Shown: piece by piece, positions 18,227 through 29,794 of the stretch
Position numbering within the stretch: position 1 is the stretch's first letter
How the letters are laid out: the number at the start of each line of letters is the position of its first letter
Assembly: GCA_039920205.1 (NCBI GenBank)
Contig: JBDSEC010000038.1
Location: 1 to 30,808, forward strand
Length of the DNA stretch: 30,808 nucleotides
From: Pyrinomonadaceae bacterium
GTDB lineage: Bacteria > Acidobacteriota > Blastocatellia > Pyrinomonadales > Pyrinomonadaceae
Direction of reading: 5' to 3'
Notes under the pieces: model-generated
What the model was told of the DNA's origin: nothing
Seen by the model: the letters and a program-made list of their open reading frames with translations, nothing else
Databases searched by the model: none
Translations under genes and position numbers: made by a program

Positions 18227-19207
18227 TTAACGACGAGGCCGACGACCCGCGCTTCCATAGCGGAGTTGCACTTTGATCAAGAGCGGCTGACTCGCCACTG
18301 CGCCCGGGCGATAAAAGAGCATCTGCGGCGCGGGTTCGGCGTGCGAGAGCAGGCGGCCGTTCGGCGTGGCAGCTTCTTTTTCTCTACTGGTCCAGGTTCG
18401 TTTCCGCCCCTCGGTCAGATCTAGCCGGCCCGCTTGACCGCCCCATTTTTGCTCCCAGACGGTTACTTGTTTCGCGGAAAGGGTTTGCGCCTGATCGCCG
18501 ATCTGCAATTCTTCAAGCGGTTCCGGGGTGACGATAACGGTCAGCATCTCGCCGACCTGATCCGTGCGGCTGCGTTTCAGCGTAAAGAACGGAGGACTGT
18601 CGTCTTGACCGGGAAGATCGATCAATCTTCCCGCCTGAACCTGGTTGTTTCCCCCCAACGTACGCGTCGTGGGAAAGACCAAGAGCGGCTCGCCAAAGGT
18701 GCCATCGGCATACTGTTCACGATCGATAACATAGAGGTATCCGGTCCGGGCAGCCTCGATCGTAAGTCGTACCCGGTTGCCTTCGGACAGGGGGGCATTG
18801 CCGGGGACCAACTCCGGGATCCAGGCTGCGGTGCTTGCACCTTCGTGAACGATTATCCTTTCACCTTCGTCGGCCGCGGCCACGGGACGCAAGCGCCACA
18901 CCGTAACGCCAATAACGGAATCGGCAGTGACATTATTGATCGAGACCTTGGGCGTAACCACGCGGTATTTTCGCGGCGTCGGGTTCTTGGCGGACCTTCC
19001 GGAGGTCTTCGCCGTGGCTTTGAAAGCCGTGTCCCAAAGGTTACGCGTCGTGTCGTGATCTGCGACCTTCTGGGCTCGAACCACAACGCTGTTGAAACAA
19101 AGCAATAACGCGCCCACAAAAATGCCGGCCAATCCTATTCGCGGGGACGCAAGAGCGGCCGCGCGCAATCTCAAATAGGTCCAGTGTCCGTCAAATCTCG
19201 ACTGCAT
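18227..19207 (-). CDS. Exported or membrane-anchored DUF4384-like domain protein
   Basis: ATG 19207 follows GGAGG inside the CHAT gene end. Hydrophobic segment ending VRA-Q; EGNRVRLTIEAARTGYLYVID, LVFP, GEMLTVIVTPEPL match the DUF4384 pattern. Confidence 0.8.
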   Translation of the reverse strand: MQSRFDGHWTYLRLRAAALASPRIGLAGIFVGALLLCFNSVVVRAQKVADHDTTRNLWDTAFKATAKTSGRSAKNPTPRKYRVVTPKVSINNVTADSVIGVTVWRLRPVAAADEGERIIVHEGASTAAWIPELVPGNAPLSEGNRVRLTIEAARTGYLYVIDREQYADGTFGEPLLVFPTTRTLGGNNQVQAGRLIDLPGQDDSPPFFTLKRSRTDQVGEMLTVIVTPEPLEELQIGDQAQTLSAKQVTVWEQKWGGQAGRLDLTEGRKRTWTSREKEAATPNGRLLSHAEPAPQMLFYRPGAVASQPLLIKVQLRYGSAGRRPRR

Positions 19208-19211
19208 AAAA

Positions 19212-22200
19212 TTACCTCCACTCGCCTTGCTGAACGAACGCCGCCCAATAATACGGCGATCGCCACTGCTTCTGTCTCCACAGCGCCAGTTGGGCTTCGC
19301 GGAACGCCGCCGTCGGCCGCATTCCACCCGTGATCATTCCTTGATAGAGGCGCGCCATAAGTTCCGCCGTCCCTTTATCGCTGACGTTCCACATGCTGAC
19401 AATAATGCGGGCGGCGCCGGCGTACATAAATCCACGGGTCAATCCAACCACCCCTTCACCTTTGATCACTTTACCCAGGCCGGTTTGGCAGGCGCTTAGG
19501 ACCACCAGCTCCGCCGGGAGGTTCAGGTTGTAGATCTCCTGCGTCTTGAGTAGGCCCTCGCGCGGTTCACCGCGTTCGTTCACCAGGGAAAGGACCAACG
19601 CCGACAGGCCGGGTCTTTCACTGTCAATGTATCCGTGGGTAGCAAAGTGCACGTAACGATACTTGCTCAACTCTCCATCGGTAGCTGCGGCCAGATTTGC
19701 CTTGAAATCCAGAGCCTCGAAATTTGAGGACTTGGGCGCCACCGCTAGAATTCGTTGCGCTTCCTGCCGAGTGAAGGGAAGTCGGCGGATCTGAGCGTCT
19801 TCATCTGAAAGATGTTCCAACGTTCGAGTTCCGTCGGTTCGTGCGATCGTCCCCGTTGGGGGTGCTTCTGATCTTCCCGGTTGGGAACGGACCCGCGCAT
19901 CCGATCGGTCAAAAACCGGATCCGCTAATAACGCAATGTTGTTGGGCGCCGGTTGGCGGCCGGCTAATTCGTTTCGCTGCAGGGCGAGGATCGAAGCCGA
20001 CGGTAAACTGACGATCTCGTGGTCGACGAACAGCGGTCTATAGGTCTGTCTAGCCAAAGAGTTTTCGGGTCGCCCGGCGATCACTGACCGCTCCGCCGCC
20101 GCTGGAACCGATAACATTGAAAAAGGAATATACTGCAACGCCCCGTCGGCGACGATCGCCAAACGTTTGTTCTCAAGTTCAGCCGCCGCCGGTCCTACTA
20201 GCAAGCCACTCAACTGTTCAGCCGCCGTTTGCGCGTCCCGGTCGGCCTGGTCGATCCGAACCCGTTTCTGTGCGGGACTTTCCTTCTCTTTTCGTTGGGC
20301 ACGCGCGGTCACTAATTCATAGAGCCGCCGCGCCGACATTTCGATCTGGTCGCGGCCCGCTAATTGATAACTGGTCAAACCATTTCGCGTCACCACCCAG
20401 AGATAACTGCGTTTGGTCCCGAGCGAGTATTCCAAGAGCAACGTGTCGGGATCTAACTGTTTTTGCAGTTCAGCCAGGTCCAGCGCTTGCGGCTGAGTCA
20501 CCGCGGCATAGTGAGGGCTGAGCCGGCGAATATCGCCGCGAACCTGCTGATAATCCGCTTCCAGCGCGCCGATCTCTTGCTGCAATTTTTGGATCTGATC
20601 CGCCCGGTCGGACTGACCCTTTAAGGTGATCAAACGCGTCGCTTTAGTGTTGAGAATTTGCGCCAATTCGCGTTCACGATCTAGCAATTTCAGGTCAGCA
20701 CCTTGACGGACGTCAACCCCAAACTCCGCCAGCATATCCAGCAGGCTGCGCGCGCGGGCGCGTTCGCTGACCTTGAGCGCCGCGGCGTCGTAGCCCTTCC
20801 GGGGTTCTGCTTGATGCATTCGCATCAGCAAGTCGATCATCAATTCGTACGCATCTTGCCGCGAAGCAAAAAATGAGGTTCGCAATTGTTGACTGGTAAC
20901 CCGTCCACGCATGGTCTCAACGATATTGATCGCCGCGTCGGCCTGTTCGCGCGCTTGGATGAAGTTATTACTGGCGAGCTGTGCTTCGGCCAGGCCTTGA
21001 CGCGCGCGCGCCTCGTCAAGCCGGTCAGTTAGTTCCAAAAATATCCCTAGCGCTTGGGTGTAAAATTCGATCGCCTGAGCCGCGTTGCCGGCCAGCAGTT
21101 GAGCTTGCCCCAGATAGACCAAAATGATGCCTTCTTCGCGGCGGCTGTGGGTGGTCCGCGCGAGTTCGAGTGCTAATTGCAATTGCCCGATGGCGTCTTG
21201 GGGTTGGCCGAGTGAAGTGTAGGCCGCTCCGATATTCTTTAGCGTGACGGCTTCTCCCCGCCGATCTCCCGATGTCCGTCGCAAGGGCAGCGCTTGGTTG
21301 AAATAATTCAGCGCCGTCGCCGTTTCGCCCGATGACGCATAGGCGAATCCGATCTGATTAAGCGTATTGGCTTCGCCCTGGACGTCTTTGGCTATACGCC
21401 GCAGTTGAAGTGCGCCGGTGAGAAACTCCAATGCCTGTGGCGGCTCGCCCAGCGCGACATAGACCAAGCTGAGGTTATCCAGCGTGTCGGCCTCGCGCCG
21501 CCAATTGCTGCCCTGCCGGCGCAAAGGTAAGGCACGGCTTAAAAAGTCTAAGGAGAGCTGCAGGTCGCCGAGGTTGTAATAAATGACCCCTATGTTGTTC
21601 AACGTGTCGCCCCGCGCCACATCATTGTTAAGCGTTCCCCACAAAGCCAGCGCCTGGTTATAATGAAGCAGGGCCGGTTGCGGTTCGCCTAGTACATCGT
21701 AGGCGCCGCCCAGGTTGTTGAGCATACGCGCCTGATTTCGTTGGTCATTGATCGATTGGCTTAGCTCAAGGGCCCGGTCAAAACGCGCTAGGGCAAGTTG
21801 CGGTTGGCCCAACGCGTTATAAGCCAGGCCCAATCGGTTGAGTACCGAAATTTCCAGGAACGGGTCGGGCAGTGAATGGAAGATGGGTAACAGTGCTTCC
21901 AATTGCACCAGCGCTTCCTGTCTAGTTGCGGGCTGTTGCAGCAATTTCGAAGCGCTCCGAAATCCTTGTTCGCCCTCCACGCGCGAACGGTCGGTGGCCG
22001 TCGGTTCCCGCAACGCTTCCACTTTGATCTCGAAATCACCGGCCGCGGCCCTGGCGTCAGGCGACCGCACTTCGATCAGATACGTGCCCGGTCCGGCGGC
22101 GATGGCCGAGATCGGTTCCGGTCCGAAATTGCCGTTCGGACTGTCCATCTCGATCAACCGTTGATGCTCCGGCCCGATCAGCGCAACGGCGACATCGATC

Positions 22201-22424
22201 CCTTGTTGCTCGACCACCACGCGCACAAATTGTCCGGCGATCAATTCCACCGGAAAGAGTTGAGTCTCGCCGCCAGCGAGCCTTCCATTGACGGACTGGC
22301 CTAGAACGAGCGGAGTCGACGGTGACTGGCCGCGCGCGGTATTGGCGGTCAGGACCAGGGCACCGGTCGCCGCCGTTAATAGGCAAGCACAAAAAAAGGC
22401 ACTGATGTTGTACGGGCGTCGCAT
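19212..22424 (-). CDS. Exported PPC-like + TPR-repeat + CHAT (caspase-like) protease, 1070 aa
   Basis: Signal peptide ending ARG-Q, PPC-like beta domain, about 8 TPRs, CHAT dyad HFATHG and VLSACQT, C-terminal SPYYWAAF. Confidence 0.93.
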   Translation of the reverse strand: MRRPYNISAFFCACLLTAATGALVLTANTARGQSPSTPLVLGQSVNGRLAGGETQLFPVELIAGQFVRVVVEQQGIDVAVALIGPEHQRLIEMDSPNGNFGPEPISAIAAGPGTYLIEVRSPDARAAAGDFEIKVEALREPTATDRSRVEGEQGFRSASKLLQQPATRQEALVQLEALLPIFHSLPDPFLEISVLNRLGLAYNALGQPQLALARFDRALELSQSINDQRNQARMLNNLGGAYDVLGEPQPALLHYNQALALWGTLNNDVARGDTLNNIGVIYYNLGDLQLSLDFLSRALPLRRQGSNWRREADTLDNLSLVYVALGEPPQALEFLTGALQLRRIAKDVQGEANTLNQIGFAYASSGETATALNYFNQALPLRRTSGDRRGEAVTLKNIGAAYTSLGQPQDAIGQLQLALELARTTHSRREEGIILVYLGQAQLLAGNAAQAIEFYTQALGIFLELTDRLDEARARQGLAEAQLASNNFIQAREQADAAINIVETMRGRVTSQQLRTSFFASRQDAYELMIDLLMRMHQAEPRKGYDAAALKVSERARARSLLDMLAEFGVDVRQGADLKLLDRERELAQILNTKATRLITLKGQSDRADQIQKLQQEIGALEADYQQVRGDIRRLSPHYAAVTQPQALDLAELQKQLDPDTLLLEYSLGTKRSYLWVVTRNGLTSYQLAGRDQIEMSARRLYELVTARAQRKEKESPAQKRVRIDQADRDAQTAAEQLSGLLVGPAAAELENKRLAIVADGALQYIPFSMLSVPAAAERSVIAGRPENSLARQTYRPLFVDHEIVSLPSASILALQRNELAGRQPAPNNIALLADPVFDRSDARVRSQPGRSEAPPTGTIARTDGTRTLEHLSDEDAQIRRLPFTRQEAQRILAVAPKSSNFEALDFKANLAAATDGELSKYRYVHFATHGYIDSERPGLSALVLSLVNERGEPREGLLKTQEIYNLNLPAELVVLSACQTGLGKVIKGEGVVGLTRGFMYAGAARIIVSMWNVSDKGTAELMARLYQGMITGGMRPTAAFREAQLALWRQKQWRSPYYWAAFVQQGEWR

Positions 22425-22500: not shown

Positions 22501-22893
22501 TCAGCGCGGGTCGCCGCTGCCTTGTCCCTGAGCCGACCAACTGCCGTCTTCTTGGCCGGTCGGAAGCGTTTTACTGGAAACGGTTCCCGACATACTATTA
22601 GGAGTGTCCAACTGACCAACAAAATAATAGGTCGTGCCATTCAACTCGATCTGGAACGCGACCTGCATGTCGTCTCCGACTGTTGCCTGTTCCAAGGCAT
22701 AGGCCGTCGTTGTTGGTTTCTCGCTGTTTACACTTCCATAAAGGTCCAAACCACCGACGGTTGGTCCTTGATAAGCAATGACGATCTCCTTCATTGTTTC
22801 GAGAACTTGTACGCCCGAAACGTCTAAGGTCCAGGATCCGGTGATCGACGGTAGATCAAGCGCTTTGTTGTTTGTCGGGGCAATGTCAGTCAT
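22501..22893 (-). CDS. Small beta-rich hypothetical protein (130 aa)
   Basis: Strong AAGGAGAG RBS 7 nt before ATG 22893. Alternating beta patterns (ITGSWTLDV, VAFQIELNGTTYYFVGQL, DGSWSAQ). No signal peptide. Confidence 0.8.
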   Translation of the reverse strand: MTDIAPTNNKALDLPSITGSWTLDVSGVQVLETMKEIVIAYQGPTVGGLDLYGSVNSEKPTTTAYALEQATVGDDMQVAFQIELNGTTYYFVGQLDTPNSMSGTVSSKTLPTGQEDGSWSAQGQGSGDPR

Positions 22894-23008: not shown

Positions 23009-23039
23009 TAATGCGTAATTCAGGCACAGATCACCTCAT
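23009..23039 (-). promoter_or_regulatory. Candidate ECF promoter, copy A (ATGAGG-N18-CGCATTA)
   Basis: Minus strand reads ATGAGG tgatctgtgcctgaatta CGCATTA, about 115 bp upstream of the ATG at 22893. Same words and spacer as copy B. Confidence 0.65.
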
Positions 23040-23182
23040 TCGTTACCGCTCGGTGATATTTGGGGGCAACTACCGGGTTCCGCCGGCCGGATCGTCAAGC
23101 TGAAGGTGAACCCAACTAGACGAAATTATCTGCATTATTATTTGCAAAAGCTAACGGCGGACTCCCGTTCGACAACTTCGAC

Positions 23183-25012
23183 TCAGTGATGCTCAAGTCG
23201 AAGCAGATAGACAAGTGTATCACCATTATATTTGAGCGCGACCTCCTTATTTTCTTCATCAACCGCCACCCGCGGTTTGGGATATTGCGGCGAATTCAAA
23301 AAATTTCTTACGCCCTCGCTCGATCCGAGGTCGCTGATCAAACCACGGTCACGCCGGTTGGCTAGCCCCTTGAGCGCCTCGAGCGAGGGAATTGGCATCG
23401 ACGAGTACACCAACCACAATTTCTCGGTGCCTTGGATAGCGTCGAAGGCGATCCAGCTATCCGCGGGTACCTGCAGCTCGTTACCCGCGGACAGTCGTGA
23501 ATTGCCGGCGTTGGTCGTGGACGAAGGGAATAGGATCACGAACGAACTCGGCTGACCGCTGGTGGCAGGTCCCTCATTAAAAACATAGAGCTGGCCGTCT
23601 TGCGGGCTGCGCAGGTGCAAACGGATCTGATAGTCGTTTTCGAAAACTATCTCTTTTCCCAAGCGGAACGGTGCTTGAAACGGCTTACCGTCCCGGTATT
23701 TCTGCACCTCGATCCAGTAGCTAAGTTGGCGTTCGGGGGCGAATGACGCTGGCCCCGGTGATGCGGGTGACGGGTGGGCCGAGCGCCAGAGCTTTACCGC
23801 GACAAAAGCGGCACCTGCCAGCAGCAACCCTGTGATCAATACGAATAGGACCGTCCGGGCTTTTGATCGGCCGACTTTCCACGGCGGTTGGCCGAGGGAA
23901 TTCATAGGGGCGGACTGCGCGCCGCTGGTAGAGCCCAAACTAGGTTCCAAGTCGCGGTGCAGCGCTTGGAGATCTTCAACCAATTCAGCCGCCGCCGCAT
24001 AACGTTGACGGCGATCCTTGGCGAGTAACTTGCCGAGGACCAGTGCCAGTTTGGCTGTCGCCGCGCGGTTTTCCAACTTTAACGGAAAGGGGTCGCGCTC
24101 TAAAATGGCGGCGATCACATCGCCACGGCTTGGACCACTAAAAGGCGCGGCGCCGGCGATCATTTCGTAGAGCACGACGCCCAGACTCCAAAGATCTGTG
24201 CGCGCGTCCACCGAAAAGGCCCGAACTTGTTCCGGCGACATATATGCGGTGGTGCCCATCAATAACCCGGGCGTGGTCAAGTACGAGTCGCTCGTTGCAC
24301 CCCCGTGGGATGGATCTGGCGCGTATTTGGCCAGGCCGAAATCCAAGATCTTTATCCGGCCGCGTGCGTCCAGCATGATATTTTCCGGTTTAATGTCGCG
24401 GTGAACGATGCCGATCTGATGGGCTTCAGCCAGGGCGCCCGCGATCTGTCCGGCGATCCGCAACGCCTCCTTGATCGCCAAGGGGCCCCGCGTTATTATC
24501 CGGCGCAAGGTCTCGCCGGCAACAAATTCCATGGCGATAAAATGTCGGCCATCGGCCTGCTCGATCTCGTAAATACTGGCAAGATTTGGATGGTTCAAGG
24601 CCGAAGCCGCGCGGGCTTCTTGACGGAATCGTCGAACCAGGTCCGGATCATCCGCCAGATGGTCCGGCATCAATTTTAGCGCGACTTGGCGGCCCAAACG
24701 GGAATCTTCGGCCAAGTAAACCTCGCCCATTCCGCCGGCGCCCAACAAGCTGATGATCCGATACGGGCCTAGCACCGCTCCGTCTAGCTCACCCGTCAAT
24801 GGATCGATCAACAGTTCCGCCGCCATTTCAAATGCCGGAGCGTCAAGAAAACTACCGGGCCGCTCGTCGGCGTTGAGTAAGGCCTCTACTTCAGCACGCA
24901 GTTCGGCATCCGCGCCGCAAGCATCCGCTAGAAACGCCGGTCGCTCGGATTCCGGTTGCTCAAGGGCGGCATGAAAGTGCCGCTTGATGATCTGGTAGCG
25001 CTCGGGATTCAT
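23183..25012 (-). CDS. Hanks-type Ser/Thr protein kinase, one TM helix, C-terminal DUF4384-like ectodomain
   Basis: GAGGMGEVY, VALK, HRDIKPEN, DFGLAK, YMSPEQ, DLWSLG; TM VLFVLITGLLLAGAAFVAV; N-terminal ERPAFLADACGADAELRAEVEALL extension typical of ECF-linked kinases. Confidence 0.95.
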   Translation of the reverse strand: MNPERYQIIKRHFHAALEQPESERPAFLADACGADAELRAEVEALLNADERPGSFLDAPAFEMAAELLIDPLTGELDGAVLGPYRIISLLGAGGMGEVYLAEDSRLGRQVALKLMPDHLADDPDLVRRFRQEARAASALNHPNLASIYEIEQADGRHFIAMEFVAGETLRRIITRGPLAIKEALRIAGQIAGALAEAHQIGIVHRDIKPENIMLDARGRIKILDFGLAKYAPDPSHGGATSDSYLTTPGLLMGTTAYMSPEQVRAFSVDARTDLWSLGVVLYEMIAGAAPFSGPSRGDVIAAILERDPFPLKLENRAATAKLALVLGKLLAKDRRQRYAAAAELVEDLQALHRDLEPSLGSTSGAQSAPMNSLGQPPWKVGRSKARTVLFVLITGLLLAGAAFVAVKLWRSAHPSPASPGPASFAPERQLSYWIEVQKYRDGKPFQAPFRLGKEIVFENDYQIRLHLRSPQDGQLYVFNEGPATSGQPSSFVILFPSSTTNAGNSRLSAGNELQVPADSWIAFDAIQGTEKLWLVYSSMPIPSLEALKGLANRRDRGLISDLGSSEGVRNFLNSPQYPKPRVAVDEENKEVALKYNGDTLVYLLRLEHH

Positions 25013-25039
25013 GCACGTGTTGATCGTTAAGGTCGAGAT

Positions 25040-25603
25040 CTAGGCTTCAAGTTCGCGGCGCAACCAGGCCCGCGCCATTTTCCATTCGCGTTCGATGGTG
25101 GCATGCGAACGCGACATGACTTCGGCGGCCTCTTCGATGGTTAGTCCACCGAAAAAGCGCAATTCGACGATCTGGCTTTGTTGTGGATCCAGTTTCTCCA
25201 GTCTTTTTAAGGCAGCATGCAGATTCAGTAGGTCGACGCCGGGATCACCCGCGACCTGGTTCGCCTCGCTTAGCGACACACTGTATTGATCTCCCCCGCG
25301 TTTGGCCGCCCGGTGCGCGCGGGCATGATCTACCAAAATTCGGCGCATGAGTTTGGCTGAGATCCCGAAAAAATGGGCCCGATTTTGCCATTTGATGTTG
25401 TGTTGGTCGATAAGGCGGACAAAGACTTCGTTGATCAACGCCGTAGGCTGCAACGTATGATCTTGCCGTTCTCGTTCTAAATAATTGCCCGCCAAGCGCC
25501 GCAGATCCTGATAGATCAACGGCACCAATTCGTCGAGCGCACTCGCTTCACCGTTGCTCCAACGTTCCAAAACCACGGTAATGTTTGGTTGGGCCTGCGT
25601 CAC
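25040..25603 (-). CDS. ECF sigma factor, kinase-associated (ECF43 / TIGR02999-like)
   Basis: ALDELVPLIYQDLRRLA, HTLQPTALINE, WQNRAHFF, MRRILVDHAR..KRGG, RFFGGLTIEE. GTG 25603 follows a GGAAGGG RBS; 27 bp from the kinase start. Confidence 0.92.
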   Translation of the reverse strand: MTQAQPNITVVLERWSNGEASALDELVPLIYQDLRRLAGNYLERERQDHTLQPTALINEVFVRLIDQHNIKWQNRAHFFGISAKLMRRILVDHARAHRAAKRGGDQYSVSLSEANQVAGDPGVDLLNLHAALKRLEKLDPQQSQIVELRFFGGLTIEEAAEVMSRSHATIEREWKMARAWLRRELEA

Positions 25604-25769
25604 GTCTGACCCTTCCAGGTGATAGCTTGCAAATACGGAAGTCGGAGAGGGGTTTGGCTGCTGCCGGAAAAAGTTGGTCGAAAGGAAAAACCGCAACAAA
25701 GGCGAACCGGGCAAGTCGAAGAGTACAGGCGGCGAAACAATTTATTCATTCGATCCAGCGTGATCCAGC

Positions 25770-26316
25770 GTGCTTAACTAGTTGAGCAGTTTACCCCTGA
25801 ATCTTGGGAACGGCAACACATTGAAGTTCCTCGCAAAGTTAATAATTGATTGGATTGTGGTGGCGCGAACTTTCTACGCCAAGGTCACGGTAGGTCCGCA
25901 CGCAGAAAACCGAACCCGTTTGGCCGGATCCGCAAATTCGCCGAGGGGTGGCCGAATGCGGTCCGTCGGGTTCGGTCAATTGCCTGCAGGGGTGAATCAA
26001 ACTCTAATCGAGGCCGGTAATGCGGTCGCGGCTATCGGCCGCATCCACCGGCCCATTCAACCCGTCCGTAATCCTTCGGCCACAGCTAGGGGACCTAACT
26101 GTAGGTTACTTACGGGTCAGGGAATCGGTCTCTTCACTTCTTGATCGGGATCAAGAAGTGTCGACCACTCTCCCTCAGACGCTCGCATCGGCCTTTAACA
26201 AGTTCGGTACGCTCAGGAGCGGGAAGCTGCCGAACCCGTCGCCGTTCGATCTGGCACTCAGATCTCGACCGGCGTCATTGTCCCGGTGGGAGAACGAGCG
26301 TTGACGAACCGTCCTC
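25770..26316. ncRNA. Candidate structured non-coding RNA or long structured leader (no known family recognised)
   Basis: At least seven stems read by eye, e.g. ACCGAACCCG/CGGGTTCGGT (25909-25976), GGCCGGT/ACCGGCC (26012-26053), CACTTCTTGATC/GATCAAGAAGTG (26135-26160), GACGCTCG/CGAGCGTT (26178-26302). No credible ORF; strand unresolved. Confidence 0.5.
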
Positions 26317-26322
26317 ACTTAG

Positions 26323-26353
26323 TAATGCGGAAGTACGGGAAAAAGTCCCTCAT
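26323..26353 (-). promoter_or_regulatory. Candidate ECF promoter, copy B (ATGAGG-N18-CGCATTA)
   Basis: Minus strand reads ATGAGG gactttttcccgtacttc CGCATTA, immediately ahead of the structured region. Confidence 0.65.
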
Positions 26354-26467
26354 AAAAAGGAGAATATTTTTTGGGGAGGGTTGTGCGGTCAGTTTTTGGC
26401 CGTTAGCCATTAGCCCGGGGAGGTATCAGCCACCAGGTTCAATGAGGTAACACTCGGGCGCCCGGCC

Positions 26468-26591
26468 GGGACATCGGGCGACCCGCCCGCAGGTTGCGGA
26501 GCCACGATCGACACCGAAAGCATCCAACGTAACCTGTAGGCTTTTTCCTGACTAGACTCCTCCGCATCAGCGGGCAGGTCGCCCGCGCTCC
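26468..26591. repeat. REP-like inverted doublet (GGAGCGCGGGCGACCTGCCCGC type)
   Basis: CGGGCGACCCGCCCGCaggtTGCGGAG on the left is the near reverse complement of CTCCGCAtcaGCGGGCAGGTCGCCCG on the right. Confidence 0.65.
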
Positions 26592-26668
26592 GGCGTTCGT
26601 CCGCCCGTGAGCGTGTAAATTATTTTGTGTAAATGGTCACTGAGCCGATAACCAGCTAAGGTTGGAGG

Positions 26669-27901
26669 ATGGCAAAAGGAGCACGGGTGACCAAAGAAAA
26701 AGATCTGATTGACGAGTTATTAAAGGATTACGAAAAGCCGGAGGATTTGCTGGGGGAAAATGGGCTGCTAAAGGAACTGACGAAGCGGCTGCTGGAGCGA
26801 GTAATGGGAGCGGAACTGACGCATCACGTTGGTTACGAGAAACACGATCCGGCGGGACATAATAGCGGGAACTCGCGGAACGGGAGTTCGGCGAAAACGC
26901 TGAAAGGAAGTTTTGGCACGATGCCGCTGGCGGTGCCGCGGGATCGAAACGGCACCTTTGAGCCACAGATCATTGAAAAGAATCAGACGCATTTTACCGG
27001 GTTCGACGCGAATATCATTTCGCTCTATTCGCGAGGCCTGTCGGTGCGTGAGATCCAGCAACATCTGGAAGAGATCTACCATGTCGAAGTTTCGCCGGCG
27101 TTGATCTCGGGGGTAACGGACGGGGTGGCGGAAGAGGTCAAAAGCTGGCAGAACCGGCAATTGGATCCGCTCTACTTCGTGGTTTATCTGGACGCAATTC
27201 AGTTCAAGGTGAGGGATAACGGACAGGTCAGAAACAAAGCGGTGTACTTGGCGATCGGCATCACGCGTGAAGGCAAGAAGGAAGTATTAGGCCTGTGGAT
27301 CGCGCAAACGGAAGGAGCCAAGTTTTGGTTGCAAGTAGTGACGGAACTGAAGAATCGGGGCGTAAAAGACATCATTATCGCGTGCGTGGATGGGCTCAAA
27401 GGGTTCCCCGAAGCGATTGAAAGCGTGTTCCCGCAAACTCAAGTACAGCTTTGTATCGTGCATCTCGTACGGCACTCGCTGAATTATGTCGGCTGGAAAC
27501 AGCGCAAGGAAGTCGCCCATGATCTGCGGTTGATCTACTCCGCGCCGACCGAGGTAGCGGCCGAACAGCAGTTGGCCGAGTTTGCGGAAAAGTGGGACTC
27601 CAAGTTCCCGATGATCGCGCGGTCCTGGCGAAATAACTGGGCCCGGGTGATTCCCCTATTCGGCTATCCGCCGGAGATTCGCCGGATCATTTATACGACC
27701 AATGCGATCGAGTCGTTGAACATGTCGCTGCGCAAAGTGACCAAAACGCGGGGGTCCTTCCCCCAGGACGAGGCGGTCTTCAAATTACTCTATTTGGCGC
27801 TACGCAATATCGCCAAGAAGTGGACCATGCCGGTACAAAACTGGAAGCAGGCGCTTAACTGCTTCGCCTTGCTTTATGAAGACCGACTGGCAGAACAGTG
27901 A
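26669..27901 (+). CDS. IS256-family (mutator-type) DDE transposase
   Basis: GGAGG RBS; NSRNG, VPRDRNGTFEP, DDE residues in YLDAI, CVDGLKGF and TTNAIESLN. Confidence 0.96.
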   Translation: MAKGARVTKEKDLIDELLKDYEKPEDLLGENGLLKELTKRLLERVMGAELTHHVGYEKHDPAGHNSGNSRNGSSAKTLKGSFGTMPLAVPRDRNGTFEPQIIEKNQTHFTGFDANIISLYSRGLSVREIQQHLEEIYHVEVSPALISGVTDGVAEEVKSWQNRQLDPLYFVVYLDAIQFKVRDNGQVRNKAVYLAIGITREGKKEVLGLWIAQTEGAKFWLQVVTELKNRGVKDIIIACVDGLKGFPEAIESVFPQTQVQLCIVHLVRHSLNYVGWKQRKEVAHDLRLIYSAPTEVAAEQQLAEFAEKWDSKFPMIARSWRNNWARVIPLFGYPPEIRRIIYTTNAIESLNMSLRKVTKTRGSFPQDEAVFKLLYLALRNIAKKWTMPVQNWKQALNCFALLYEDRLAEQ

Positions 27902-27941
27902 ACTCGGTAACATGCGGACCCTGATCGCATCATGGAAATTT

Positions 27942-28003
27942 TTTTCCGGGCGCCGGAGCGGCGCAAAAACGCGCGTTTTTACACCGCTCCGGCGCCCGGA
28001 AAA
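27942..28003. terminator. 62-bp near-perfect palindrome in the IS 3' region
   Basis: TTTTCCGGGCGCCGGAGCGG / CCGCTCCGGCGCCCGGAAAA 20-bp arms enclosing the perfect palindrome AAAAACGCGCGTTTTT. Confidence 0.7.
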
Positions 28004-28083
28004 CCAAAGATTAAGCAGAATCAAAACAACGGAACCGAAATCAAACCAAAGATCATTTACACAGAATATTTGACACTACCGCA

Positions 28084-28674
28084 ATGTTACGGTCCGAAGT
28101 AGAGGAACTACACTACATCACACCGATCGCAATTGTGCCTTCGATATTGCAGCAGGGCATTTTGTCGCATACACTTGCCGATGATGTGCCCCATGAATCT
28201 GTTGCAATGGCTGATATTCAGGATCGGCGCCGATTGAAACAAGTGGGAAACGGACGATCGCTGCACGATTACGTCAACTTGTATTTCAATGCGCACAATC
28301 CAATGCTAAGTCGATGTCGTGATCGGAACTCCTCCATTTGTGTTTTACGCGTCAATCCAATGGTATTGGATCATTCTCAAGCCGTTTTTTCCGACCGCAA
28401 TGCTGCCGCTGATATGGCGCTTTTTTCGACAGTTGACCTGGGACTCGCGGCGATCGACCGAACCCGACTTTTTGCGCGCTATTGGACACATCCGAACGAC
28501 CCGATGGAAGAGAGTCGACACAAGGCTGAAATGTGCGCTGAAGCCTTGATTCCAGACCGAGTTGACGGGAAATCTGTTATGGGCGCCTATGTTGCCAATC
28601 GTGCTGCGCGAGAGATGTTCTTGGGGCTGAAGACCGGTCTAAGTGTCCAAATCAACACAAACCTGTTCTTTTAA
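28084..28674 (+). CDS. darT: DarT DNA ADP-ribosyltransferase toxin (DUF4433)
   Basis: LHYITPI..VPSILQQGILS, LHDYVNLYFNAHNPML, FSDRNAA, catalytic Glu in CAEALIP; directly upstream of a macrodomain gene. Confidence 0.88.
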   Translation: MLRSEVEELHYITPIAIVPSILQQGILSHTLADDVPHESVAMADIQDRRRLKQVGNGRSLHDYVNLYFNAHNPMLSRCRDRNSSICVLRVNPMVLDHSQAVFSDRNAAADMALFSTVDLGLAAIDRTRLFARYWTHPNDPMEESRHKAEMCAEALIPDRVDGKSVMGAYVANRAAREMFLGLKTGLSVQINTNLFF

Positions 28675-28681
28675 CGATGCC

Positions 28682-29794
28682 ATGAAAGTTTTGATTGCAG
28701 ACATATTGAAGTCCGATTCCCAGACGCTGATCAATACGGTGAATTGCGTTGGCATCATGGGTAAGGGCATTGCCCTGGAATTTAAGAACCGGTACCCCGA
28801 GATGTTTGACGATTATGTCCGGCGATGTGCCAGACACGAAGTTAAGCCGGGTGTGCCATATATTTATCGCGGTCTATTCCCGCCCTACATAATCAATTTC
28901 CCGACTAAGGATCACTGGAAGTCGGTCTCGCGGCTAGCGGACATTGAGCGCGGGCTGCAGATCCTTTTGGAAAAATACCGGGAATGGGAGGTCACATCGC
29001 TGGCTATTCCGCCCTTGGGTTGTGGAAATGGACAGCTTGAGTGGAAACAGGTCGGTCCAATGATCTATCACTATGCCAAGCAGATGGATATCCCCGTTGA
29101 GATGTATGCACCATACGGTACGCCGCCGAAGGAGTTAACCATAGATTTTCTTTCTGCGGAACCGGCAGCGTCGGCCAAAATAAGGTCGCCGCCGACCGCT
29201 ATGAATCCAGCGTGGATCGGATTGGTCGAGATACTTCGACAGATCGAATCGAACCCATATCACTGGCCGGTCGGACGAATCATTTTTCAAAAGATCGCGT
29301 ATGTCGCGACCCGGGAAGGTCTTCCTACCGGGCTAGTTTATGCCAAAGGCAGTTACGGTCCCTTTAGTCCCGAGTTGAAAAACGTGCAAATGAAATTGTC
29401 CAATAGTAATTTGCTTCAGGAGGAGCGAAAGGGGCAGTTATTTGTTTTAACCGTTGGTTCCAAGTTCGAGCAAGTTCGCCAGGAATTTCAAGCCTCGCTG
29501 GTCGAATGGAAGTCGATCATTGATCGGACTACGGATCTGTTTCTGCGAATGAACTCGAACCAAGCCGAGGTAGTTGCGACAGTGATCTACTCGGCAGATC
29601 AGTTGCGCAAAGTGAAATGTGGCCCGCCATCCGAAGTCGAGGTGTTTGAATCTGTAATGCTTTGGAAACAGAAACGGTTGGAGAAGGCAGAGGTTGCTTC
29701 CGCGATCCGGAACCTTGCGATGCTTCGCTGGTTGGACGTTACGTTCGATGCGAATCTACCGGTTGTTGAAGAAGACGAGTTCGCGCCGGCTTAA
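28682..29794 (+). CDS. darG: DarG macrodomain antitoxin (DarTG2 type)
   Basis: LINTVNCVGIMGKGIALEFK, IINFPTKDHWK, AIPPLGCGNGQLEW, C-terminal QKIAY...YGPFS domain. ATG 28682 lies 7 bp after the darT stop. Confidence 0.92.
   Translation: MKVLIADILKSDSQTLINTVNCVGIMGKGIALEFKNRYPEMFDDYVRRCARHEVKPGVPYIYRGLFPPYIINFPTKDHWKSVSRLADIERGLQILLEKYREWEVTSLAIPPLGCGNGQLEWKQVGPMIYHYAKQMDIPVEMYAPYGTPPKELTIDFLSAEPAASAKIRSPPTAMNPAWIGLVEILRQIESNPYHWPVGRIIFQKIAYVATREGLPTGLVYAKGSYGPFSPELKNVQMKLSNSNLLQEERKGQLFVLTVGSKFEQVRQEFQASLVEWKSIIDRTTDLFLRMNSNQAEVVATVIYSADQLRKVKCGPPSEVEVFESVMLWKQKRLEKAEVASAIRNLAMLRWLDVTFDANLPVVEEDEFAPA

Follow-up and report, generated by a model that had tools for sequence, protein, structure and literature searches.

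A conserved bipartite promoter-like motif at a kinase-linked ECF sigma factor locus of Pyrinomonadaceae

The sigma-kinase locus and the two motif copies

The locus lies in a stretch of 30,808 nt (the window, meaning the whole of the DNA analysed) from a Pyrinomonadaceae (Acidobacteriota) MAG, the assembly of which amounts to 4.7 Mb and is 80%-complete. It comprises the genes of an ECF sigma factor and a Hanks-type kinase, a downstream operon ending in orf366, and two copies, A and B, of a bipartite motif. The features are listed below in order of position; copy A is also called P1, and copy B is a P2-type box.

18227..19327, minus strand: orf366, weakly DUF4384-like, with which the synteny of the module ends
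19212..22424, minus strand: TPR-CHAT protease, second gene of the P1 operon (CHAT E = 8e-63, plus TPR repeats)
22501..22893, minus strand: small ORF of 130 aa, first gene behind P1, without a Pfam/NCBIfam family match
22906-22900, minus strand: ribosome-binding site (RBS) of the small ORF, AAGGAGA
~23005-23001, minus strand: predicted start site of P1
23009..23038, minus strand: P1 (copy A), TGAGG, 18-nt spacer and CGCATTA, by direct reading
23038-23034, minus strand: -35-like box of P1, the extended form of which, TGAGGTGAT, reaches 23030
23015-23009, minus strand: -10-like box of P1
23183..25012, minus strand: Hanks-type Ser/Thr kinase (Pkinase E = 6.5e-48)
25040..25603, minus strand: ECF sigma factor (PF07638, TIGR02999), likely GTG start at 25603, maximal ORF from 25714
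25604..26316, minus strand: non-coding stretch of ~700 nt from copy B to the sigma start (the leader), with no convincing ORF and no Rfam match
25932-25911, minus strand: terminator-like hairpin inside the leader
~26319-26315, minus strand: predicted start site of copy B
26323..26352, minus strand: P2-type box (copy B), TGAGGGA, spacer and CGCATTA, by direct reading, aligning with P2 of seven orthologues
26354..26372, minus strand: A/T-rich, UP element-like tract directly upstream of copy B, which also precedes orthologue and unlinked P2 sites

The sigma factor has 187 aa and contains regions 2 and 4 only, with profile scores of E = 1.2e-57 for PF07638 and 219 bits for TIGR02999 (cut-off 126); its orthologues start with M(M)QAQPNIT. 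In region 2.2, QPTA is found where DAED is expected, within HTLQPTALINEVF, which is invariant in nine orthologues. The kinase gene begins 27 nt past the sigma stop, and its orthologues are 53–59% identical and share a C-terminal domain specific to this orthologue group. No anti-sigma domain was detected among the locus proteins scanned. The TPR-CHAT gene is syntenic in all orthologues (59–66% identity), flanking synteny extending no further than the sigma gene at one end and orf366 at the other.

Both copies of the full motif, ATGAGG-N18-CGCATTA, were read directly on the minus strand where the earlier note had placed them (23039-23009 for copy A, 26353-26323 for copy B), with boxes identical at 13/13 positions and spacers of 18 nt each that agree at 8/18 positions. 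Each copy falls between genes, on the strand that codes for the sigma, kinase, small-ORF, TPR-CHAT and orf366 proteins, as had been claimed. The conserved core is TGAGG, the leading A varying among relatives. Even when two mismatches are allowed, the window holds no match but these copies, and an exact scan of the 4.7-Mb assembly with spacers of 14–22 nt retrieved only these two and one further match with a 15-nt spacer. Relaxed patterns gave only scattered matches across the assembly, none of them near sigma genes, so that no larger regulon is visible in it.

The 13/13 identity of this single pair had been offered by the earlier note as an argument in itself, which did not hold, as such identity is at chance level in a 30-kb window. 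The window contains 42 equally good same-strand pairs with the 6-N18-7 layout and unrelated spacers, 13 of them less than 5 kb apart (252 pairs when spacers of 14–20 nt are considered), and 15 of 100 shuffles yield at least two matches at up to two mismatches. Both figures speak for the reading of the pair as a functionless chance coincidence. Because of the 42 comparable pairs, the pair alone is not significant; its significance comes solely from comparative data outside the window, which are needed since the identity of one motif pair is insufficient by itself.

Conservation of P1 and of P2-type sites

The comparison was based on ten orthologous sigma-kinase loci from ten species and seven genera, the kinase C-termini of which are 53–66% identical. 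The motif TGAGG-N18-CGCATTA is kept in all ten, 132–147 nt past the kinase stop, within intergenic DNA that otherwise fails to align among the loci; its presence at orthologous loci was one of the checks on which the earlier note had staked its proposal. The spacer is 18 nt long in 10/10 sites and variable in sequence, and an RBS and an ATG, those of a small ORF heading a TPR-CHAT-DUF4384 operon, follow 97–137 nt downstream of the box at every locus. In the 300-nt regions, the only 7-mers common to at least eight of the ten loci are CGCATTA/CCGCATT and the RBS AAGGAGA, while shuffled controls of the same regions gave none. The extended consensus reads TGAGG[G/C/T][A/G][A/G]T, ~14 nt and (C/G)CGCATTA, usually downstream of an A/T-rich tract. 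The boxes are thus, as judged by their sequence conservation, real, evolutionarily conserved and promoter-like.

The P1 sites show a further feature, an inverted repeat TGAGG-N7-CCTC(A) followed by a T-run, which is present in six of the ten and may have a second function. At one locus the pair occurs in the compensated form TGAGA...TCTCA.

P2 sites recur in seven orthologues and at unlinked places, always ahead of a gene. They are composed of the A/T tract, TGAGGGAGT, CGCATTA and a conserved stretch corresponding to the first ~20 bases of the predicted transcript, with a spacer of 18 nt in 8/8 sites. In the orthologues they are located downstream of the DUF4384 gene or elsewhere, upstream of variable cargo of PixA-, HBL-, Vps62- or collagen-like type. 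No cargo remnants were found in the leader of the window, nor did the 80%-complete assembly contain any homologue of the cargo.

The position of the P2-type box is different here, since copy B precedes the sigma start by ~720 nt, and both this placement and the 700-nt leader are peculiar to this genome. The proposal that the copies bracket the sigma-kinase pair, with the autoregulation that this implies, therefore stands for this genome but does not extend to the orthologues, in which no motif-like site was found within 1.5 kb upstream of sigma (0/8). They consequently lack an autoregulatory site, the feature by which ECF promoters are most commonly diagnosed. Upstream of sigma the orthologues carry TTGACA-N17-TAATAT-like boxes, and in the window no sigma-70-type promoter was recognised at this place. 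The apparent housekeeping-type promoter of the regulators in the orthologues fits control by phosphorylation rather than autoregulation.

The leader has a fold z-score of -3.6. The link between the motif and a structured RNA suggested in the earlier note is one of position only, copy B pointing into this 600–700-nt stretch: no homologue of the stretch was detected in nine orthologous loci or in the rest of the genome itself, the 301 genomes of the family gave no real homologue (two marginal matches of 25–38 nt only), and Rfam searches returned no match, either for the whole window at gathering thresholds or for 25600-26700 at E up to 1. The sequencing runs matching the region are three rhizosphere DNA runs, with no RNA run among them; their Logan contigs are short fragments that span neither copy B nor the repeat/IS junction and are uninformative on assembly and transcripts.

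Distribution of the motif over sigma clades

Across the 301 family genomes, 22 exact sites are found in the ten orthologue genomes and ~0.28 per genome elsewhere, the reversed-pattern control giving ~0.29 per genome. Seven further genomes contain nine exact sites within 200 nt of sigma genes 58–63% identical to that of the window; these paralogue-associated sites are placed in the sigma-kinase gap or upstream of sigma in divergent orientation, and other relatives carry the variant TGAGGGnnT...CGCGTTA in the same places. In sister kinase clades (44–50% identity), GGTGGTTTTCC-N8-TTCTCGCGTTA occupies the same post-kinase position at 8/20 loci, with a different -35 box and a related -10 box (CGCGTTA). 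The different -35 box at an unchanged position indicates that the motif varies from one sigma clade to another.

These data refute chance coincidence, which we regard as scarcely credible: the box is found in the same place in 10/10 orthologues, the motif is enriched and adjoins the sigma clade, and a weight matrix built from other genomes only ranks copy B first and copy A second among the 9.4 million positions of the assembly.

A role in RNA or DNA structure, either as a terminator or attenuator ending the sigma-kinase transcript or as recombination repeats flanking the CHAT cassette, is less improbable than coincidence, yet still very improbable. In its favour are the inverted repeat with its T-run in six P1 sites, the compensated pair, the direct repeats that P1 and P2 of the orthologues form around a three-gene cassette, and the differing genomic contexts of the module. 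The stem, however, is just 4–6 bp long, is absent or in another register in four of the ten loci, including the window, and is lacking from P2 sites. A hairpin explains neither why CGCATTA is invariant and the spacing always 18 nt, nor the A/T tract or the paralogue sites between sigma and kinase or divergent from sigma, and no cassette-free "empty site" was seen.

The boxes could instead be a true promoter or operator read by another factor, a paralogous ECF sigma or a transcription factor with a bipartite site, the neighbouring sigma being a passenger. The motif adjoins several paralogous sigma-kinase pairs, which means that specificity is common within the clade and that, in multi-sigma genomes, its assignment to one sigma is unproven; moreover, the orthologues show no autoregulation, and a regulator might bind the inverted repeat present in six P1 spacers. 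In this assembly, however, both sites are at the sole sigma of this clade; the identity of the six other sigma homologues does not exceed 54%, and they have no motif nearby. The half-sites are unlike each other and asymmetric, as expected for a sigma factor, whereas dimeric regulators use palindromes or direct repeats, and the -35 box, though fixed in position, differs from one sigma-kinase clade to the next. We consider this explanation unlikely, albeit the most serious of the three alternatives.

The proposal of the earlier note, a bipartite promoter of the local kinase-linked ECF sigma, is thus favoured by strong comparative evidence: the presence of the motif at 10/10 loci, the invariant spacer, its association with this sigma clade in several gene arrangements, and the changed -35 box of the sister clades. 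On this comparative evidence, the TGAGG-N18-CGCATTA sites are probably the cognate promoters of the adjacent kinase-linked, phospho-activated ECF sigma factor.

Proposed mechanism and relation to known ECF systems

The canonical ECF promoter consists of a -35 GGAAC/AAC, 16–17 nt and a -10 CGT. The motif described here resembles it in its two-part, asymmetric build with a spacer of strictly constant length, in its intergenic location upstream of a putative regulated operon at 5'-UTR distance, and in being specific to one sigma clade, with a -35 that differs between sister clades. Unlike canonical promoters, the boxes of the window and of the orthologues contain neither AAC nor CGT, the latter appearing only in the CGCGTTA of relatives, and in the orthologue group the sigma gene is not preceded by a site. 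Taking GGGAGT/GGCGAT for the -35 core and C[A/G]TTA for the -10 core would leave a 16-nt gap, the usual ECF geometry.

By its motif and gene context, the sigma factor is most likely of the ECF43-like, phospho-activated type. As in the ECF43-type pairs EcfP-PknT of Vibrio parahaemolyticus and EcfK-PknS of Xanthomonas citri, an ECF sigma is found beside a Hanks-type kinase with no anti-sigma noted, and DAED is replaced by an uncharged threonine motif, here QPTA. The region 2.2 consensus of ECF43 is QTTA/STTA (QTTA for the group, STTA in EcfP), and its threonine is phosphorylated (PMC13147305, PMC8999054). The known targets of these pairs are polymyxin resistance genes or a T6SS, whereas the host here is an acidobacterium and the targets would be the small ORF-TPR-CHAT-DUF4384 operon and swappable cargo. 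The literature searched yielded no promoter consensus for ECF43, and the likeness to ECF43 rests on the sigma motif and the kinase context. Planctomycete and other kinase-linked groups (ECF59-62, ECF217, ECF267 and ECF283) share with the window sigma PF07638/TIGR02999, common among them, and a neighbouring Ser/Thr kinase (PMC7826278), but mostly retain a DAED-like acidic motif (PMC8999054), which the window sigma lacks. TIGR02999 itself was not mentioned in the literature searched.

From these features we infer that the boxes are active promoters with the predicted start sites, that they depend on the sigma and that the latter is phosphorylated, and we propose the following mechanism. The sigma-kinase pair would be made, in relatives, from the housekeeping-type promoter. 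On some signal, the membrane kinase would phosphorylate the threonine of QPTA in sigma region 2.2, the phosphate providing the negative charge required for binding to core RNA polymerase, and the holoenzyme would begin transcription a few bases past CGCATTA. From P1 it would transcribe the small ORF and the genes of the TPR-CHAT protease and the DUF4384-like protein, and from the P2-type sites of relatives one variable cargo gene. From copy B, transcription would here run through the 700-nt non-coding stretch to the sigma-kinase pair, as feedback on the regulators, or would yield a non-coding transcript.

Kinase-activated ECF sigma factors are abundant in soil phyla. To our knowledge, few have known targets, and these are proteobacterial only. 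The locus may, as a more speculative and rather doubtful extension, represent a portable output system switched by the kinase and sigma, in which a fixed P1 drives an exported TPR-CHAT operon and a movable P2 cassette drives interchangeable toxin-like genes; such a system might serve as a defence regulon triggered by predators or competitors, with P2 here re-used for the regulators or for a new non-coding RNA of 400–700 nt. For one acidobacterial sigma clade, the findings yield a promoter consensus concrete enough to be tested, together with a predicted minimal regulon, composed of the small ORF, the TPR-CHAT protease, the DUF4384 protein and variable toxin-like cargo, and the sister clades with altered -35 boxes constitute a natural series for studying the promoter specificity of ECF sigma factors.

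The motif pair and its recurrence at orthologous loci

An earlier note had located two copies of the motif ATGAGG-N18-CGCATTA on the minus strand of the window, and direct reading of the sequence finds both at these positions. The locus and its upstream neighbourhood are arranged as follows:

28643-29794, macro-domain protein, overlapping the DarT gene
28084-28674, DarT ssDNA ADP-ribosyltransferase
26669-27901, IS256/Mutator-family transposase (left end of the element near 26608)
26460-26600, palindromic repeat of about 120 nt
26353-26323, minus strand, copy B
ORF 25714-25040, minus strand, ECF sigma factor (family matches PF07638 and TIGR02999)
25012-23183, minus strand, Hanks-type Ser/Thr kinase
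23039-23009, minus strand, copy A
22893-22501, minus strand, small ORF
22424-19212, minus strand, TPR-CHAT protein
19327-18227, minus strand, orf366, weakly DUF4384-like

Exact matches in the 4.7-Mb assembly are confined to copies A and B, a uniqueness that is circular, the motif having been defined from these two copies. The fair null is the count of equally good pairs: the window holds 42 same-strand 6-N18-7 pairs whose spacers are unrelated, and in 13 of these the partners are no more than 5 kb apart. The pair alone is therefore what chance would produce, and its identity, on which the earlier note had leaned, would not by itself suffice.

The DNA run that best matches the window is a rhizosphere metagenome. 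The kinase-specific C-terminal domain was used as a query against 301 genomes of the family Pyrinomonadaceae (Acidobacteriota), yielding ten kinase loci with 53–66% identity from seven genera (G000, the assembly of the window, G008, G062, G003, G237, G123, G189, G278, G091 and G304), below which identity drops to at most 50%. The sigma orthologues are set apart just as sharply (78–82%; next, 68%). The unpublished genomes G016, G047, G125, G143, G158, G188, G245 and G247 were counted only in family-wide tallies and contribute no evidence locus. At all ten loci, TGAGG-N18-CGCATTA is found 132–147 nt past the kinase stop, with a single mismatch in two of them; presence at orthologous loci, a check named in the earlier note, is thus established with the 18-nt spacer. 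This site, termed P1, is represented in the window by copy A. Around it, the intergenic DNA of the ten loci cannot be aligned except at conserved islands. A weak patch rich in A/T comes first, followed by TGAGGnGAT, by (C)CGCATTA and by a short patch of AGA/AGC; the last island, 97–137 nt beyond the box, is AAGGAGA with the ATG of the small ORF. The 7-mers common to at least eight P1 regions comprise only CGCATTA/CCGCATT and the ribosome-binding site (zero in shuffles). Pure chance is excluded for the box by this conservation.

In six of the ten P1 sites (L021, L022, L023, L024, L026 and L027), TGAGG-N7-CCTC(A) and a T-run behind it, about 132–175 nt past the kinase stop, form a short hairpin or palindrome over the -35 box and spacer; the corresponding stretch of the window, 23038-23016, is not among the six. 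Another locus, L025, has a compensated pair, TGAGA...TCTCA, in another register.

P2 sites, their cargo and copy B

A second site, P2, is found in seven orthologues about 170–200 nt downstream of orf366. Its parts are an A/T tract, cTGAGGGAGT, CGCATTA at the 18-nt spacer and, at the head of the predicted transcript, ~20 conserved bases that are AGATGTAGGCAATGCG-like regardless of the gene that follows. The cassette also occurs elsewhere: G003, G062 and G189 carry it on additional contigs, and G150 has it in an eleventh locus, which is partial. The downstream gene varies by genome: a 145-aa family with a PixA match (inclusion-body-like), a protein resembling Bacillus HBL, a Vps62-domain protein, a collagen-repeat protein, and several without a family. 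In the relatives this cargo (L048:10742-11176, L065:1721-2911, L068:5583-6317 and L052:15035-15958, among others) is interchangeable and toxin-like.

Copy B has the A/T tract and TGAGGGA of P2. A weight matrix made solely from 16 foreign sites, run over all 9.4 million positions of G000, gave copy B the top rank and copy A the next. The seventh-best match (contig C552, ~10971, plus strand, 14 bits) lies upstream of, and points away from, a paralogous sigma gene (C552 10923-10360, 50% identical); it could be a related promoter belonging to a different clade.

Copy B lies ~720 nt before the sigma start codon, a placement of a P2-type site seen only in G000, whose synteny with the orthologues is confined to sigma through orf366. 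No P-like site was found within 1.5 kb upstream of sigma in eight orthologues; the bracketing of the sigma-kinase pair described in the earlier note is particular to this genome. The stretch between copy B and sigma yielded no convincing ORF, no Rfam match, no P2 cargo remnants, no homologue in the orthologous loci and no real one in the 301 family genomes (two marginal 25–38-nt matches only). Its predicted fold is slightly more stable than those of 20 shuffled versions (z = -3.6), and it contains a terminator-like hairpin with a T-run (25932-25911, minus strand, ~310 nt before the sigma start), which could end a ~400-nt transcript from copy B. The stretch may be a long leader with feedback on the sigma-kinase pair, a lineage-specific non-coding RNA, or what a rearrangement close to the IS element and the repeat has left behind. 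The suggested link between motif and structured RNA region is therefore one of position only.

The palindromic repeat, without an Rfam match, recurs in the assembly: BLAST gives at least 48 matches, spread over 31 contigs and sometimes two or three in tandem. Its predicted fold is a single long hairpin (MFE -77 kcal/mol, z = -4.0), and it resembles an element of the MITE or REP type. The DarT and macro-domain genes (within 26608-29794) look like a DarT-DarG toxin-antitoxin pair.

The sigma clade and its box

Exact sites number 22 in the ten orthologue genomes and ~0.28 per genome in the other 291. The reversed-pattern control gives ~0.29, so the background argues against a large hidden regulon and the excess is explained by the sites at orthologous loci. 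Nine exact sites lie less than 200 nt from a sigma gene 58–63% identical to that of the window (G053, G103, G071, G171, G194, G227 and G024), either in the interval separating sigma from kinase or upstream of sigma in divergent orientation, and other relatives carry the variant TGAGGGnnT...CGCGTTA at the same places. Sister kinase clades (44–50% identity) have GGTGGTTTTCC-N8-TTCTCGCGTTA after the kinase stop, at the position of P1, in 8 of 20 loci (L030, L034, L036, L037, L039, L041, L042 and L047); compared with the window clade, its -10-like part is related and its -35-like part different. Judged from sequence, this is how the boxes of ECF sigmas would be expected to change as the sigmas diverge. 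In G000, no motif of the window type was found near the six other sigma homologues (at most 54% identical).

Conservation and co-occurrence with the sigma clade thus support, as the most likely reading, the proposal that the motif is the promoter of the local ECF sigma; that P1 and P2 are active promoters, where they start transcripts and that they depend on this sigma are predictions. It seems unlikely that a different factor reads the boxes. Still less probable is a role as RNA hairpin, terminator or recombination site. Such a role is suggested by the inverted repeat that six P1 spacers contain and by the direct repeats flanking the CHAT cassette, but it would not account for the spacing, the paralogue placements, the P2 sites or the invariance of CGCATTA.

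Predicted activation and regulon

The orthologous sigmas begin M(M)QAQPNIT, which sets the start of the window sigma at the GTG at 25603. Region 2.2 is HTLQPTALINEVF in 9/9 orthologues, with QPTA at the position of the acidic DAED found in most ECFs. Reviews and the paper on EcfK describe the ECF43 group in the same terms (STTA in EcfP, QTTA as group consensus), its threonine being phosphorylated by the neighbouring kinase, which allows core polymerase binding (PMC8999054, PMC13147305, PMC8103513). A TTGACA-N17-TAATAT-like box immediately precedes sigma in several orthologues, which, together with the lack of a P-like site there, fits constitutive synthesis and post-translational activation. 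Three tested features support a sigma of the phospho-activated type, and the window system would work like an ECF43 kinase-sigma switch with a clade-specific promoter. Unlike classical ECF promoters, the window boxes fail the AAC/CGT test, so the predicted promoter is a non-canonical consensus within this known kind; the cores GGGAGT/GGCGAT and C[A/G]TTA would leave a 16-nt gap, an ordinary ECF geometry.

In the proposed mechanism, the kinase would sense a signal and the threonine of QPTA would be phosphorylated, allowing the sigma-polymerase holoenzyme to form. Transcription would then start at P1, toward the small ORF, TPR-CHAT and DUF4384 protein genes, and at P2, toward the variable cargo. 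This would provide a usable promoter consensus for the sigma clade and a small defined regulon, predicted to include an exported caspase-like protease, with swappable toxin-like cargo behind what may be a portable promoter cassette.
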